Of a stretch of 45,246 nucleotides of DNA, positions 19,918 to 26,364 are shown piece by piece. The stretch lies in the IMG/VR virus record IMGVR_UViG_2778261297_000003; one strand, 5' to 3'. Below the pieces are notes generated by a model that searched no databases, had not been told where the DNA came from, and worked only from the letters and a program-made list of their open reading frames with translations. This stretch comes from a virus. Taxonomy: Duplodnaviria > Heunggongvirae > Uroviricota > Caudoviricetes. Numbering within the stretch: position 1 is the stretch's first letter; the number at the start of each line of letters is the position of its first letter. The position numbers and the translations under genes are program-made.

Positions 19918-22047
19918 TTATTTCGGCAGGAGTTGCGATATTCGCTTACGTTTGACCGGCGCTGGTTCTTCAATAACCGCACCCGGCAGCTCGTAATTGA
20001 TTTTTTCTTCCTGTCCAACTGGCGCTGGCAGGAACTTATCCGGATCGGCTTCGAGGTTGGCGGCCCGGACGTTGAGTTTTAACCCCATATGTTTGAGACC
20101 GCACAGCGCGGCATAGCTGTAAACGAGGCAGTCAAGCGCTTCGTTAGCTCGTCCTGGTATTGCTTCCCAGATACTGTACCGCTGCCCGGAAATGACTTTG
20201 TAAACCAGTCGCTCCGCCAGCAGCTGATTGAAGTACCCGAGATCGCGATCGTCAGGAAAATGCATATAACCCGCAGCGGCGGCGCCAGGTTTGGGTGGCT
20301 CAAGATGCAGGCGACCGCGTATCACGTCTTTCGCTGAGTTAACCCCCAGAATGACAGGGCGGAAACTGGCTTTGCTTTTCGATGATGGTCGTTTGGTCGG
20401 CCAGACAGGATTGCGTTTACCTCCCTGTGCAGACTCCCCCTTAATTGCCCAGACACGACGGCCAAGACGCTCTTTGGCGAATTCGTATACCTTCTGCGTA
20501 TGGTGGCCACCGGAGTCCATGCACGTTGCCATGATATTCAGGCCGCGCCCGTCACCACGTCGCCAGATCTGTTTCAGGTATGCATCCAGTCGCTTCCAGG
20601 GTTCTTCCGTCTCAAGGTCACCATAAATAACGTCATGCGCGACCGACCACGATTCTTCATCTCTCCCCCAGCCGGTGATCGTAATTTCGAAGCGATCGTC
20701 CTGGGTATCAACTCCAGCTGTTAACAATGCCACCCCGTCCGGAACGACGGCCGGAAATATTTCCCGGCGCGCCAGCAGAACATCAACAGGGAGCTGTTTC
20801 CCATGATTAGGTCGGTGCGGAAGCCCCATCTGGGTATTCCACCACGCCTGTTCCTTATCCGGATCGCCCTTCGCATCGATATATTTTTTCGCAATATCCG
20901 ACGGCTTATCTTTTTGCCAGGGGCTGAAAAGCTTGGATGCCTGGTACCCCGCGTGGTGGTTATCGACTGCCTCCTTTCCACAGGAGGGGCAGATTGCGCG
21001 ATAGACCGCATGCCGTTCCGACTCTGACCATTGCCAGACCTTTTCAACGCTGCCCTCGTCTGCCGCCCGCCAGGCAAGGTCATAATCCATCAGCGGTGAG
21101 TGCCGCTCCCCGCAGCACTCAAATGGGCGCGTCTGATGCCATCGAATAGTGTGCAGAGCTCTGAGGCGCTGTCCTTCGGACCAGCCACTACCACAGCATT
21201 CGCAATAGAGCATCGCCGATTTAGTCAGGTGTTTATCTCCCTCTTTCGGCCACTGAACGTGTTTGAAAAAGTCGGGGAACTGGCGGTGGCCACAGTGCGG
21301 GCAAACCACAGATGCCCGGCGCTGATCGGAGTCGGCGTAGCTGTCAGCAATGCGGCTCTCATCCTCCACCGTCGGCGAACAGGCGCGTACAGACAGCCAG
21401 GTCAGGCCAAATGTCGCTGTACGCTCTTCGGCCAGCGCAATTGGATCGCCTTCGCGGGTTATCGGGTACTTGTCCACTTCATCCGCCAGCAGGACACGAA
21501 TCGGACGACGCGCAAGGTTATCAGGGCTACCAGCACCCGCCAGCGCCAGAAATCCGCCAGTGAATGCCTTGTAAAGAATGGTTTCTTTCGAGCTTTTCTG
21601 TTTCGAATCACCGATGATTTTACGCAGTACCGGCGTCACCCTTACCAGCGGGCTAATACGCTCTTTCGAAAACTGTTCAGCGGCTTCTTCTTTCGGCTGC
21701 AGCAGCAGTATCGGACAAGGATCGAGGTGGGCAAAATAGCCAAAAAGGTTTTCCAGCAGTGCTGTCTTCATCAACTGGGTACAGCACATTACAGTGATGA
21801 TATGAACCCCGGACTCCGTCGCGGCAAGCATCGGTCCGCGGGCAATTTCTACCGTCGATGTTTCCCAGTTTCCCGAAGTGCTCCCAGCCTCTTTTGCCAG
21901 CTTACGATAGTCATCTGCCCACTGCGGCACACTGATACGCGGCGGGGGTGTCCAGCCTTTGCGGACGCTTAATTCAAGACGCTCAATCTTCTGCCGGGTT
22001 AAACTCTGGCTCTCCGAGGACTGAGATGTGTTTGTGGACATGTTCAA
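19918..22047 (-). CDS. terminase large subunit (lambda gpA family)
   Basis: 709-aa ORF with ATPase region (..ILLLQPKEEAAEQFSKERI.., ..RVLLADEVDKYP..) and multiple Cys clusters as in gpA-type terminases. Confidence 0.9.
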   Translation of the reverse strand: MNMSTNTSQSSESQSLTRQKIERLELSVRKGWTPPPRISVPQWADDYRKLAKEAGSTSGNWETSTVEIARGPMLAATESGVHIITVMCCTQLMKTALLENLFGYFAHLDPCPILLLQPKEEAAEQFSKERISPLVRVTPVLRKIIGDSKQKSSKETILYKAFTGGFLALAGAGSPDNLARRPIRVLLADEVDKYPITREGDPIALAEERTATFGLTWLSVRACSPTVEDESRIADSYADSDQRRASVVCPHCGHRQFPDFFKHVQWPKEGDKHLTKSAMLYCECCGSGWSEGQRLRALHTIRWHQTRPFECCGERHSPLMDYDLAWRAADEGSVEKVWQWSESERHAVYRAICPSCGKEAVDNHHAGYQASKLFSPWQKDKPSDIAKKYIDAKGDPDKEQAWWNTQMGLPHRPNHGKQLPVDVLLARREIFPAVVPDGVALLTAGVDTQDDRFEITITGWGRDEESWSVAHDVIYGDLETEEPWKRLDAYLKQIWRRGDGRGLNIMATCMDSGGHHTQKVYEFAKERLGRRVWAIKGESAQGGKRNPVWPTKRPSSKSKASFRPVILGVNSAKDVIRGRLHLEPPKPGAAAAGYMHFPDDRDLGYFNQLLAERLVYKVISGQRYSIWEAIPGRANEALDCLVYSYAALCGLKHMGLKLNVRAANLEADPDKFLPAPVGQEEKINYELPGAVIEEPAPVKRKRISQLLPK

Positions 22048-22552
22048 TCAGCACCTCTGTCATCCTGTCCGCCGGTACATCCAGATCAGCAGCCATTAGC
22101 GGCGCCACCCTGGACGGCCAGTTAAGCCAGGCATCACGCTGTTGGCGAAAGGCGTTGAATAAAACCTCCTCGGCTGCTGTCAGCTCAATAAGCTGGCCGC
22201 TGTCTTTTTCATACTGCAGCTTTGCCTGCAGGGCCATGTAATTCTCGCGGATACGTCCCGCTTCCTCTCTCGAAAGATCTGCCCCTTCAGTGAGCATTAT
22301 CTGGCGGACAGTTTTATTGATTTCATCACCGTCATCATCGTTATCGCTAACGACGGGAGTTTTCTTTTTCTTCGCGTTCGAGGCGCGCGGGTCTTTGCCA
22401 TCGCGGTTTTTCTTCAATGCCGCATCGCTGGCCTCTACGTCAATCAGGTCTCCGTCCATCACAATGAAGCGCCCGGCTTTAATCCACCGACCAATTGTTT
22501 TGCGATCCACACCTGAATGTTGTGCGTACTGACTCTGGTTCATCGTGGTCAT
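21983..22552 (-). CDS. terminase small subunit (Nu1-like)
   Basis: 189 aa; N-terminal HTH MNQSQYAQHSGVDRKTIGRWIKAG resembles Nu1; overlaps the large subunit start. Confidence 0.75.
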   Translation of the reverse strand: MTTMNQSQYAQHSGVDRKTIGRWIKAGRFIVMDGDLIDVEASDAALKKNRDGKDPRASNAKKKKTPVVSDNDDDGDEINKTVRQIMLTEGADLSREEAGRIRENYMALQAKLQYEKDSGQLIELTAAEEVLFNAFRQQRDAWLNWPSRVAPLMAADLDVPADRMTEVLIEHVHKHISVLGEPEFNPAED

Positions 22553-22700
22553 GGGACATCACCTGGGACATTTTCTGGGGTGGGACATTCGCCTGGGACA
22601 TTTTTGCCATGTCCCACCAGAATGTCCCACTGGAATAAACTGGAATAGCCAGAGCTGGCGAGGTGTCCGTAATGATCGCCAGAGGTGGGACATGGGACAC
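22553..22700. repeat. GGGACAT repeat array (candidate cosB / small-terminase binding sites)
   Basis: At least 5 direct and 2 inverted copies of GGGACAT/ATGTCCC within about 150 bp immediately upstream of, and overlapping, the Nu1-like start. Confidence 0.5.
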
Positions 22701-22791
22701 AAATCTGAAAGTTGTAGCTAGGAAAACACCGCGGCGCGCAATGCCCGTGCCTTACAAAAGGCTCAGGAAGGACCCAAAACCCCTGGGGGGG

Positions 22792-23433
22792 CTATCTGGC
22801 CGAGCTGATCGCCTCAGCAATCGCCTGGTGCAGCGCTGAGGGTAACAATGCGTTGGCCATGGTGTTTGCCCTGTCCATATAGCCGAGCGTTGGTTTGACT
22901 GGAAGCGCGTCTCCAAACCGAATAAGCAATTTTGGTGCAGGTTGCTTAATCTTGTCTCTGCGCGTGCCGTTCGGAGAACGTTTTGCCCGTTTCTTCCCTT
23001 TTTTGGTTTTCGGCTTTTTTCTCTGCCACACGGCATTCACGCCACCAACGTCACCAATAAATACGTTTGGCTTTGCTTTGAGCTGAGAGAGCTTATTACG
23101 CGGCAGGTTGCCGTATTTATTAAGCTTTATGTCTTTCGGGTTAAGCAAAGCACCACCATTAAGCTTGTGCGCTCCGCCGAACTCGAAGGGTTCAAGGTAG
23201 CCAGCAGCAGTATCACGAACAAACACCTTCGCACGAAGGCTGTTTTTCCTGGCACCAACTGACCCTACCGATTTAACTGTAAAAGGTGTTGGATTATCCA
23301 GATTCTGCTCAAATGCTGTTTTTTGGGCCGCTTCTATCTGGCGAACCACTTTAGTCATAGCCTGGGCAGTCGCAAACGGTATTTGCTTCTGCAGCTGTCT
23401 TAACTGACTGGAAAGGTCCTTAAGCGTTGCCAT
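22792..23433 (-). CDS. hypothetical protein with basic K/R-rich segment
   Basis: About 213 aa from MATLKDLSS (AGGTGG RBS); K/R-rich stretch RKKPKTKKGKKRAKR; no family recognised. Confidence 0.5.
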   Translation of the reverse strand: MATLKDLSSQLRQLQKQIPFATAQAMTKVVRQIEAAQKTAFEQNLDNPTPFTVKSVGSVGARKNSLRAKVFVRDTAAGYLEPFEFGGAHKLNGGALLNPKDIKLNKYGNLPRNKLSQLKAKPNVFIGDVGGVNAVWQRKKPKTKKGKKRAKRSPNGTRRDKIKQPAPKLLIRFGDALPVKPTLGYMDRANTMANALLPSALHQAIAEAISSAR

Positions 23434-23486
23434 ATCATTGACCACCTAGTTACAGTAATTAAGATCAGTTTGCTCATAAAGTTGAC

Positions 23487-23510
23487 AATAAAAAACCGCC
23501 CGTAGGCGGT
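23487..23510 (-). terminator. rho-independent terminator
   Basis: Minus strand CCGCC-TAC-GGGCGG followed by TTTTTTATTG, overlapping the stop of the upstream ORF. Confidence 0.55.
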
Positions 23511-23794
23511 TAGTCGAACATTTTATCAAGTTGCTTAGCAAGAGCTCGGTTAAACAGCTCCTTCGAAACTGTCATCAGCGTGCCCATACTGGCATCTTTG
23601 AATCCGGTTTTTAATGTTGCCCAAACCTCTTTGTTACGGAGAGCATCCAAGAAGTCATGCCCCATCGCGGTCAATCGCAAGGGCATTACAGCCCAGTGAG
23701 TCATTCCGTCTAAAGACTGAATAGCACCAAAGCCGGGCTCTCCATCACTCCTGATAATCAGCCCTCTATCCTCAAGCAAACGCATATGAAACAC
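23510..23794 (-). CDS. hypothetical protein (94 aa from GTG; same frame continues upstream to an ATG at 23912-23914 across one TAG)
   Basis: Track ORF starts at GTG; an upstream in-frame ATG with GGAGGGG RBS is separated from it by a TAG at 23867-23869. Confidence 0.45.
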   Translation of the reverse strand: MFHMRLLEDRGLIIRSDGEPGFGAIQSLDGMTHWAVMPLRLTAMGHDFLDALRNKEVWATLKTGFKDASMGTLMTVSKELFNRALAKQLDKMFD

Positions 23795-23946: not shown

Positions 23947-24426
23947 TCAATTTAAGCACTGCTCTTTGATGTATTCCTGCAAATATCCAACCTGTTTCGT
24001 CACTGTGACGATTCGCTCTCTGAGGGTGAAATAATCCCGTTCAGCGGAGTCAGTAAGTCGGGGGCCGGTAACATCGCCCAGGCCGCCGGTGCTGGTCGCT
24101 CCGTTCGCGGGACATCTGGCGTTGACGTGCAGCCCACACTTGCCAGTGCGAACACAACGCTGCAAATCATCAAGCTGCTTTTTAGCATCAGCTAAGTCCT
24201 TCGTGTATTTGGCATCCAGCACCGCTGCATCACGCTGGCGGATCTGCATGTCTTTGATGGTGGCGTTCGCCTGGCTAAGATTCTTAATGGCTTTATCGCG
24301 CTGGTCTTTGTAGGTGATGGCGTTGCCGCGGTAGTGGTTAATCGCCCAGGCCATGGAAACCATCAGGCAGATAACGACAGCACAGATGATTGCTGTTAAT
24401 CGGCTCACTAATCTAACCCCCAACAC
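23947..24426 (-). CDS. Rz: i-spanin Rz
   Basis: 159 aa; N-terminal TM segment and strong similarity to lambda Rz (..[18 protein letters not shown].., ..[11 protein letters not shown]..). Confidence 0.85.
24000..24188 (-). CDS. Rz1: o-spanin Rz1 (embedded in Rz, +1 frame)
   Basis: 62-aa ORF wholly inside Rz; lipoprotein signal ..ALASVGC followed by a Pro-rich segment, like lambda Rz1. Confidence 0.75.
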
Positions 24427-24944
24427 GCCAGCGCGCTTTCCTGGTCCCGTCTCTCAACCTGACCATAGCAGCCATTCTTCTGGCCTTTGGTTAGTCGGCA
24501 ATCGCGGCCACCGTCTTTGATCCACCAGCGGATTGCTTCACATGCCCCTTTACGATCACCGGCGTTGATGCGTTTATAAAAGGTAGAAGGGAAGCATTTA
24601 CCAGGACCAATGTTGTACGGGCAAAATGAGGCAATCCCCGCTTTCTGCGGTTCGGTCAGTGGTACCTGGATATTGCGGTCGACCCAAGCCAGCGCCTTGT
24701 TCAGCTCGCTGGCGTTCACCTGATTACATTTCTCTGGCGATAGCCTCATACCTGGTGTAACAGGCTTGCCGTCAACCGTGGTAGCTCCCCGGCAAATCGT
24801 CCAGATGCCGCTGCCATCTTTGTACGCTGTAAGGCTGTTTCCCTCTTTCTCATTCAGAAACTGATCGAGAATGACGGATGCTGGCGCACCAGCAAGTACC
24901 AACCCCAGAACAGCAGCACTTAATTTTGCTCTGGATCCCATCAC
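24408..24944 (-). CDS. SAR endolysin (lysozyme, T4/P21-type muramidase)
   Basis: 178 aa; N-terminal Ala/Gly-rich weakly hydrophobic signal-anchor-release-like segment, then E..D..T catalytic spacing ([16 protein letters not shown]). Confidence 0.8.
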
Positions 24945-25243
24945 TCACCTTCCTTTTGTAATGCCTCAACGACCACGCTTGCAGCCGCAGGACGTTCGTG
25001 AAGGGGTTTATCACCAACGCCTTTCAGGTAGTCATTGACCATTTTTGTTCGCTTCTCGTCCTCTCTACGCCTGCGGTGGGCATCCACGCGACCATTGACA
25101 TAGGAGGCAAACGAGATAAGCAGACCAGCGGCGCCAAAGAACATGAACACCATATCCTGAGTGGTAAAACCAATGGCTGACGCCAGAGCTGCTACCCACG
25201 CGAAGAACTGCGTGAAAATGTTCCCTGAATCATTCATTTTCAT
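24941..25243 (-). CDS. holin (two TMDs, Met-Lys-Met dual-start motif)
   Basis: 100 aa starting MKM; two hydrophobic segments and a charged C-terminus; immediately upstream of the endolysin. Confidence 0.7.
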   Translation of the reverse strand: MKMNDSGNIFTQFFAWVAALASAIGFTTQDMVFMFFGAAGLLISFASYVNGRVDAHRRRREDEKRTKMVNDYLKGVGDKPLHERPAAASVVVEALQKEGE

Positions 25244-25311: not shown

Positions 25312-26364
25312 TTATTCCCCTGTTAACGCCCTTATTTCCCCCACCGTCTGGCTAAACCTGTCCTTCTCGAGTTCAACGCCGATAGCCTGGCGGCCAAGTT
25401 CCAGCGCGATTTTCACGGTCGAACCGGACCCCATAAAGAAATCAGCCACCACATCACCAGGCTTACTGCTGGCGTTGATGATCTGCCGCAACATGTCAGC
25501 GGGTTTTTCGCATGGGTGTTTACCTGGGTAAAACTGAACGGGTTTATGTGTCCAGACGTCGGTATAAGGAACGGATACGGAAACAGAGAAATGCCGCCGA
25601 AGCGATTTGTACTCTTCGAGCAGCTCTGAATACTTGCGATTTAACGAATGCCACATAGCCACCAGCTGGTGGTGTGGTGTTGCCAGTTCGCCGTTCTGGT
25701 GCTTTTCGATGGCTACCTGCGTGAAAAGGGACTGAAGCTTCCGGTAGTCTGATTCATTCGGTAATTGCCACTGGCTACCGCTGAACCAGTGAGACACCAT
25801 GTTCTTCTTTCCAGTCGCATCGGCTATTTGTTTTGAGGTTATGCCAAGCGCTTCACGTGCATCCCGGAAATAAGAAATTAGGGGAGTCATTACATGCTGC
25901 TTCAGCTCGCTTCCCTTCTCAGCGTACCCGTCGCTCTTTGGTTTATACGGCCCCTGGTAATGCTCAGCGAACAGGATGCGCTCTGTTGCAGGGAAGTAAG
26001 AGCGCAGGCTCTCTTTATTACAGCCATTCCAGCGGCCCGACGGTTTAGCCCAGATGATGTGGTTCAGGACGTTGAACCGCTCACGCATCATGATCTCAAT
26101 GTCTGCCGCCAGACGGTGACCTGAGAAAAGATAAAGACTGCCGGCAGGTTTAAGCACTCGCCAGAATTGTGCGAGGCACATATCAAGCCAGCGAAGATAA
26201 TCCTCATCCCCTTTCCATTGATTGTCCCAGCCGTTGGGTTTCACTTTGAAGTACGGCGGATCCGTGACTATCAGGTCAATGAAGTTATCAGGGAGAGTTG
26301 CGATGTATTGCAGGCTATCAGCGTTGACTAACTCAACACTGTTTATATTTACAGTATTTTTCAT
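25312..26364 (-). CDS. DNA methyltransferase, beta-class (N6-adenine or N4-cytosine; DPPY motif)
   Basis: 350 aa; motif IV VTDPPY near the N-terminus and motif I FFMGSGST near the C-terminus. Confidence 0.8.
   Translation of the reverse strand: MKNTVNINSVELVNADSLQYIATLPDNFIDLIVTDPPYFKVKPNGWDNQWKGDEDYLRWLDMCLAQFWRVLKPAGSLYLFSGHRLAADIEIMMRERFNVLNHIIWAKPSGRWNGCNKESLRSYFPATERILFAEHYQGPYKPKSDGYAEKGSELKQHVMTPLISYFRDAREALGITSKQIADATGKKNMVSHWFSGSQWQLPNESDYRKLQSLFTQVAIEKHQNGELATPHHQLVAMWHSLNRKYSELLEEYKSLRRHFSVSVSVPYTDVWTHKPVQFYPGKHPCEKPADMLRQIINASSKPGDVVADFFMGSGSTVKIALELGRQAIGVELEKDRFSQTVGEIRALTGE

Follow-up and report, generated by a model that had tools for sequence, protein, structure and literature searches.

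The segment at 22552–22775 on the minus strand of the window (the whole 45,246 bp stretch of DNA analysed here) is, when read in the packaging direction, very probably a lambda-type cos site belonging to a cohesive-end prophage. The repeats at 22700–22552 hold the position of cosB, between cosN and the small terminase gene terS, and comparison with related sequences indicates that a single cosQ-cosN chassis carries at least three interchangeable specificities, of which their heptamer is one. The kind of element, a lambda-type cos, is already known, and the cosN has been published for the Serratia phage vB_SspM_BZS1 (BZS1 hereafter).

The genes around the segment all lie on the minus strand and follow the order of the lambda late operon. 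A holin gene (24941–25243), a lysozyme gene (24408–24944), Rz (23947–24426), a DUF2513 ORF (23510–23794) and a 217-aa phrog_1924 ORF (‘minor tail protein’; 22792–23445) are followed, after a gap of 239 bp, by terS (21983–22552), encoding a 189-aa small terminase of the Nu1 family with a predicted N-terminal winged-helix DNA-binding domain, and by terL (19918–22047), encoding a GpA-type large terminase (ATPase and endonuclease). In Escherichia coli ABWA45, which carries an identical annotated copy, genes for gpW, the portal and an S49 protease come next. Over 22400–23000, the sequence in ABWA45 is 100% identical to that of the window and the one in E. coli AW1.7 is 99.7% identical. Among 5426 complete E. 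coli genomes the segment was present in 56 (approximately 1%) and, since it was chromosomal in every case, it belongs to a prophage. The phrog_1924 ORF is placed between the lysis genes and cos, far from the structural genes. The authors of the BZS1 study saw the same conserved position directly upstream of terS (PMC7556043), and other relatives have unrelated genes in place of this ORF. The prophage also encodes a DNA methyltransferase with a DPPY motif (25312–26364). When isolated phages were searched with the DNA of the cos region, Megablast returned no match and sensitive blastn returned only the upstream phrog_1924 gene of Citrobacter phage phiNP and BZS1.

Ten copies of GGGACAT were found in the window, counting both strands, and seven of these fall within 22553–22693, five on the plus strand (22553, 22565, 22582, 22595 and 22687) and two on the minus strand (22609 and 22622). 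This bears out an earlier note, made from the sequence of the window, which had reported at least seven copies of GGGACAT/ATGTCCC in both orientations. As chance would give 5.5 copies in the whole window but only about 0.02 in 141 bp, the cluster is far beyond chance. The true repeat unit is an 8-mer. Seven of the eight exact copies of TGGGACAT in the window sit in the array, and the eighth unit of the array, TGGGACAC (22693–22700), has one mismatch and adjoins the seventh. All eight units are within 149 bp of the terS ATG (minus strand, 22552), in agreement with the same note, which had placed the repeats within 150 bp of a Nu1-like start and had also correctly reported a duplication of CTGGAATA near that start (copies beginning at 22630 and 22640).

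Read on the minus strand, the array consists of two forward units, a 57 bp spacer, two reverse units and four forward units. When numbered from the predicted nick, the R3-like block (22686–22700; nt 45–59) is a forward tandem of GTGTCCC and ATGTCCCA, starting at nt 45 and 52 and thus 7 bp apart. The R2-like block (22609–22629) contains two reverse units (TGGGACAT on the terS-sense strand) at nt 117 and 130, and the R1-like block (22552–22601) contains four forward ATGTCCCA units at nt 144, 157, 174 and 186, with the terS ATG at nt 193. Within the R2-like and R1-like blocks the unit starts are separated by 13, 14, 13, 17 and 12 bp (mostly 12–14 bp). The AGGTGA ribosome-binding site of terS is located between the last two units of the R1-like block, the second of which extends into the A of the ATG. 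The spacer between the R3-like and R2-like blocks (22630–22685) includes a conserved GATC (22674–22677) as well as the duplicated CTGGAATA.

The predicted cohesive end, a 12-nt 5′ overhang, is the 12-mer GCATTGCGCGCC at 22733–22744 on the minus strand. Read from 22744 to 22733, it is identical to the annotated cosL of BZS1. The sequences flanking the 12-mer are also as in BZS1 (CACGG before it and GCG after it), and the 12-mer is present in phiNP too. The BZS1 record (GenBank accession number MT843275) is linear, with nt 1–12 annotated as ‘cosL; left cohesive end’ and terS starting at nt 75. This cohesive end was mapped by PhageTerm on virion reads and was confirmed by comparing a prophage PCR product with the ends of virion DNA (PMC7556043). 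The GC-rich palindromes that the earlier note had pointed out, CCGCGG and GCGCGC, were found at 22729 and 22734, respectively, and are overlapped by the 12-mer. Two metagenomic viral sequences have an end at this point; one (L096) starts 1 nt before the 12-mer (nt 1, GGCATT) and the other (L097) ends 2 nt before it (nt 2545, GGGCATT).

The right flank of cosN, GCGGTGTTTTCCTAGCTACAACTTTCAGATTT (22701–22732, minus strand), is conserved and is collinear with CGCGGGTTTTCGCTATTTATGAAAATTTT of lambda. It begins GCGGTGTTTTCCTAGCTA where lambda has CGCGGGTTTTCGCTA, and corresponds to the right half of the lambda cosN together with the region of the second IHF site. This flank is kept in relatives of all three of the specificity classes described below. 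Alignment to the lambda flanks (ACG, 12 nt, CGCGG) predicts the overhang GGCATTGCGCGC, with the nicks shifted 1 nt upstream from where PhageTerm placed them in BZS1. Because of this shift, the nick position is given here as ±1–2 nt, and the exact nick positions in this cos family may need re-checking. In a relative from E. coli 23CRST046 (L007), the cosN reads GCATTGCGCACC, with one substitution at position 10 of the cohesive end.

A cosQ-like heptamer, GGGTCCT (22769–22775, minus strand), starts 31 nt upstream of the cohesive-end 12-mer. Lambda carries GGGTCCT at –30, compared with –31 in the window, and we take the lambda heptamer to be the cosQ of Wieczorek and Feiss (2001). cosQ is a 7 bp site that is highly conserved (PMC4669245). 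[quoted passage not shown] In 80 relatives from IMG/VR, the genes upstream belong to several unrelated families and the homology starts at GGGTCCT, which marks a mosaic joint. A gapped alignment of the cos core of the window with that of lambda gave 55 identical columns out of 90 (z = 4.6 against shuffles).

In the 49 distinct relatives the repeat columns had a mean entropy of 0.04 bits, compared with 0.53 bits for the spacers (Mann–Whitney p = 1e-11). The array is retained in relatives from Yersinia and Salmonella, in which TerS is 64% and 58% identical, respectively, to that of the window and the spacers showed, by inspection, no evident similarity to those of the window. Most columns of the spacer between the R3-like and R2-like blocks are variable, the exceptions being the GATC and TTATTCC..TTTATTCCAG. 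The GATC was kept in at least 90% of the 49 distinct close relatives while its flanks vary, and the duplicated TATTCCAG beside the R2-like block (22630–22647) was also conserved. Both are confined to the close clade; neither occurs in the relatives from Yersinia, Salmonella or Klebsiella.

The complex cosB of lambda is arranged R3-I1-R2-R1, with R2 inverted (PMC9026076; PMC4669245). The CGTTTCC cores of R3, R2 and R1 are found 53 nt (forward), 114 nt (reverse) and 155 nt (forward) from the nick and the ATG is at nt 191. The eight units in the window follow these positions and orientations, with two, two and four short units at R3, R2 and R1, respectively, so that both systems have TerS-site cores in the forward orientation near nt 50, in the reverse orientation near nt 115 and in the forward orientation near nt 150, and the terS ATG is at nt 193 in the window. 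The two also share the order cosQ, cosN, cosB, terS, terL, a GGGTCCT about 30 nt before the nick, a 12-nt 5′ overhang (predicted in the window) flanked by ACGG... and ...CGCGG.GTTTTC.CTA, a TerS assigned to the PHROG that includes Nu1, and a GpA-type TerL. They differ in that the cohesive ends are identical at only 5 of 12 positions, and in that the window has an 8 bp ATGTCCCA unit in 2+2+4 copies whereas lambda has three 16 bp R sequences. With 5 of 12 cohesive-end positions identical, and only the flanks of cosN and cosQ resembling those of lambda, the window cos falls outside the group that Feiss et al. (2015) call lambda-like phages. A further difference lies in the R3–R2 spacer. A scan for the IHF core consensus (WATCAANNNNTTR, allowing up to two mismatches) found no match in this spacer in the window, although the lambda I1 site, used as a positive control, was recovered with one mismatch. 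A weak match to the IHF core (two mismatches) lies at nt 31, which is also its location in lambda. The spacers of some relatives are AT-rich, and one relative (L094) has an IHF match with one mismatch. Because the spacer is without the IHF core consensus, the bending model developed for lambda is not simply transferable.

TerL contains the domains PF05876 (E = 2.8e-64) and PF20454 (E = 2.2e-78) and is the enzyme expected to nick cosN. TerS matched phrog_57 (E = 4.6e-36, residues 1–188), which was also the best family for lambda Nu1, for the TerS of BZS1 and for the chimeric TerS described below. The direct match to Nu1 was weak and covered residues 4–61 (BLASTP E = 0.04, hhalign E = 0.004), with approximately 28% identity over the N-terminal 58 residues only. 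No Pfam family scored above threshold for TerS, and searches of the PDB with the single sequence or with a profile gave only spurious or insignificant matches. An AlphaFold2 model built from 78 sequences has a pLDDT of 77–80 over the N-terminal 50 residues, which are folded as helix, helix, wing, helix. The family match and the model place TerS in the Nu1 family, with an N-terminal winged helix-turn-helix domain. No close relative of this TerS was found in INPHARED, the best matches being approximately 29–41% identical, and the ATGTCCCA specificity class had no isolated phage representative in that collection. The TerS of BZS1 and phiNP are approximately 33% identical to that of the window in this search (approximately 31% for BZS1 in another comparison), and the N-terminal motif of the BZS1 TerS differs from the window motif.

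Further TerS N-termini were found by scanning viral contigs for the common cosN and excluding those with the window-type flank, and distinct cos regions were then counted. All 43 regions with the TerS motif GV[DN]RKT..RW.K (class A) contained 6–9 units of the ATGTCCC type and no GGTAACA. All 34 regions with VSRKTVT.WK[AS]RG (class B) contained 3–7 copies of GGTAACA and no ATGTCCC, and the class B relatives have GGGTAACAGGTAACA at the R3-like position. Both regions with the third motif, VS[KE]KT...WK.EG (class C), contained GGTAA[CG]G. In these sequences, the heptamer co-varies perfectly with the predicted N-terminal DNA-binding domain of TerS, which is a statement about co-variation and not about binding. 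The independent events are few because the classes correspond to clades plus one recombinant type, and co-inheritance of linked DNA would yield the same table.

The TerS of a group of Klebsiella and Raoultella relatives (such as P0114, P0091 and P0094; the loci L141/L142 are from Klebsiella) are natural chimeras, with an N-terminus of the GGTAACA class and a C-terminal half that is close, in the alignment, to the window TerS. Their cos regions have the same cosQ, the same cosN and the same architecture of two forward, two reverse and four forward units, but the units are all GGTAACA (nt 47 and 54 forward, 123 and 135 reverse, and 153, 166, 179 and 190 forward, with the ATG at nt 197). Because of these chimeras, the heptamer can be said to follow the DNA-binding domain of TerS and not the remainder of TerS or the layout of the array. 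The patterns of conservation and co-variation show array units that are apparently under selection and tied to TerS. The reading of the repeats in the earlier note as a cosB-like terminase-binding region is thus supported by their position, by their conservation against drifting spacers and by this co-variation, and its cosN-like nicking site by the identity of the 12-mer to the mapped 5′ cohesive end of BZS1. The cosQ-like GGGTCCT, the R3-R2-R1 orientation pattern and the interchangeable specificities had been missed there and extend that reading.

A similar arrangement, in which alternative pairs of TerS recognition helix and R sequence are found with a common cosQ and cosN, is known among the lambda-like phages, in lambda and the packaging-specificity variants 21, N15 and Monarch, and the lambda-21 and lambda-N15 hybrids have a chimeric TerS with an N-terminus that matches the cosB (PMC4669245). 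The family described here differs from these in its heptamers (ATGTCCC, GGTAACA and GGTAA[CG]G), in having many more copies per cos, and in the extra copies found in the linker-coding region of terS in BZS1 and the class C relatives. As among the lambda-like variants, both a ‘complex’ form (the window, with the ATG at nt 193) and a ‘simple’ form (with the ATG at nt 75) are present. BZS1 and phiNP have the simple form, with three GGTAACA copies before the terS ATG. The terS of BZS1 also includes seven intragenic GGTAAC[AG] (six GGTAACA and one GGTAACG), five of which are spaced 12, 12, 15 and 12 bp apart, and the simple form has an inverted copy inside terS at nt 218, which in BZS1 is one of the seven; this is comparable to N15, with its R3 and an intragenic rR2. 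BZS1 shares with the window an identical 12-nt cohesive end, identical flanks and an identical cosQ-like heptamer, and has a homologous upstream phrog_1924 gene, GpA TerL, gpW and portal, but its repeat is GGTAACA. The BZS1 paper (PMC7556043) reports the cohesive end but no cosB, cosQ or repeats.

In the relatives with a simple cosB, their own heptamer recurs in the linker-coding region of terS, at 122–303 in the locus that represents BZS1 (L004) and approximately 180–270 nt after cosN in two others (L114 and L096). The intragenic heptamers encode GN[KA] or GK peptide repeats, and one stretch of DNA appears to be both the putative binding-site array and the code for a low-complexity protein linker.

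Rearrangements were seen in individual relatives. In IMGVR_UViG_2922257965_000003 (L016, 1425–1471), the 33 bp inside the outer inverted units (TGGGACAT ... ATGTCCCA) run in the opposite orientation to those in the window and in the other close relatives that were retrieved, and this looks like the product of recombination between inverted repeat copies. As the block is symmetric, the inversion leaves the orientation pattern intact. In IMGVR_UViG_3300011204_000013 (L086), an IS3-family element (OrfA and transposase fragments) occupies approximately 200–1400, and the R2-like and R1-like blocks follow immediately downstream of it. Neither cosQ nor cosN is present in the stored locus, and the cos is therefore disrupted in this prophage.

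In the mechanism that we propose, TerS would recognise the eight ATGTCCCA-type cosB units via its winged-helix N-terminus, and the units would act in a lambda-like arrangement of R3 (two forward), R2 (two reverse) and R1 (four forward). The bound TerS would anchor the GpA-type TerL over cosN, which precedes the first unit by 45 nt, and staggered nicks made by TerL would then generate the 12-nt 5′ overhang GCATTGCGCGCC, to within ±1–2 nt. Packaging would run towards terS and terL, which is towards lower coordinates in the window, and would end at the next cos, where the GGGTCCT located 31 nt upstream of the nick would take the role of cosQ. In this scheme the window prophage would still be packaging-competent, and the R3-like and R2-like blocks would be brought together without an IHF consensus. 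A more tentative suggestion, which we consider possible but doubtful, is that this cosB works differently from the IHF-folded R3/R2 pair of lambda. Its eight short units would wrap around a TerS oligomer, each DNA-binding domain taking one unit, in a multi-box mode like that of SPP1/SF6 but within a lambda-type cos. The spacing of 12–14 bp between units would, speculatively, suit such wrapping. In the pac site of SPP1, multiple TerS boxes flank the cut site and are thought to wrap the DNA around the TerS oligomer (PMC4669245), and the window likewise has several short predicted TerS-binding boxes spread over more than 100 bp beside the cut site. However, SPP1 uses headful packaging and a terminase of another family and is without fixed cohesive ends, whereas the window has a GpA-type TerL and a close relative with mapped cos ends.

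The repeats could instead be operators for a regulator of the packaging operon, either TerS acting on its own gene or another phage or host protein, and not a packaging site. The last units do lie on either side of the AGGTGA ribosome-binding site and reach into the start codon of terS, the inverted pair TGGGACAT-N7-ATGTCCCA resembles a classic operator palindrome, and co-variation with the TerS DNA-binding domain fits autoregulation equally well. However, a consensus-only scan of 22300–23000 detected no sigma-70-like promoter (both strands) or terminator, and the genes follow those for lysis in a late operon of the lambda type. The array is retained in relatives with different upstream genes, so that it has no neighbouring regulator co-varying with it. 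It also begins only 45 nt from the cosN, whose sequence matches a mapped cohesive end exactly, and reproduces the positions and orientations of the lambda cosB. We consider this explanation improbable. It is not exclusive of a cos site, as TerS bound for packaging could also damp the expression of terS, and such an autoregulatory side-function is suggested by the location of the last units around AGGTGA and the ATG. A binding site for the upstream 217-aa protein was rejected because relatives keep the array but differ in the gene upstream of it, and for the same reason the repeats are not part of the upstream gene. Replication iterons were also rejected, as the region is in the late operon and not near replication genes. 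In an Rfam search of the region the sole match, to an miRNA (E = 0.2), was due to chance and arose from the palindromic repeats.

Arrays of multiple TerS boxes flanking a cut site, as in the pac phage SPP1 (PMC4669245), would also be consistent with a headful pac site here. Under this reading, or if packaging started elsewhere, the match of the 12-mer to BZS1 would reflect functionless shared ancestry. Both are very unlikely given that the ATPase and nuclease domains of TerL are of the GpA type found in cos phages and that the cohesive ends of the relative BZS1 are fixed, with 12-nt 5′ overhangs. The invariance of cosQ, cosN and their spacing in dozens of relatives, and the two metagenomic viral sequences that stop within 2 nt of the site, also argue against it. 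We give equally little credence to the idea that local duplication or slippage produced the array without any function, or that it is the relic of a defective prophage. Tandem and inverted copies can arise from replication slippage or recombination, as the inversion in L016 illustrates, and decay does occur, as in L086 where an IS3-family element lies inside the spacer. Against this, the units are nearly invariant while the spacers have diverged beyond evident similarity (in relatives with TerS 58–100% identical), the same architecture has been rebuilt with another heptamer in the Klebsiella chimeras, and the inversion in L016 preserves the orientation pattern.

Searches of the literature found no description of the cosB of this cos family, of the ATGTCCCA packaging specificity, of multiplied short units at the R3, R2 and R1 positions or of a missing IHF consensus in such a cos. 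Searches with the 12-mer found only the BZS1 paper, those with the 8-mer and ‘terminase’ found nothing relevant, and those with the cosQ heptamer found no paper quoting its sequence. The repeat unit, which had been called unfamiliar, is accordingly one for which no published description was found, and is one of at least three specificities.

Recognition of the site as a cos would fix the packaging origin, the packaging direction and the genome ends for a prophage family that is found across the Enterobacterales and whose small terminase is annotated merely as ‘hypothetical protein’. The family represents a natural experiment in which one cosQ-cosN unit is combined with three pairs of TerS domain and heptamer and with both ‘simple’ and ‘complex’ cosB, in parallel to the lambda/21/N15 system from which present thinking about cos recognition derives. 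With it, one could ask how general the dependence on IHF, the number of sites and their spacing are, and it could help to predict cross-packaging of prophages, satellites and cosmids. If the multi-box reading is true, the family would offer three or more pairs of heptamer (ATGTCCC, GGTAACA and GGTAA[CG]G) and DNA-binding domain that are orthogonal in nature, on one cosQ-cosN chassis, with the sites written in some members into the linker-coding sequence of terS itself.
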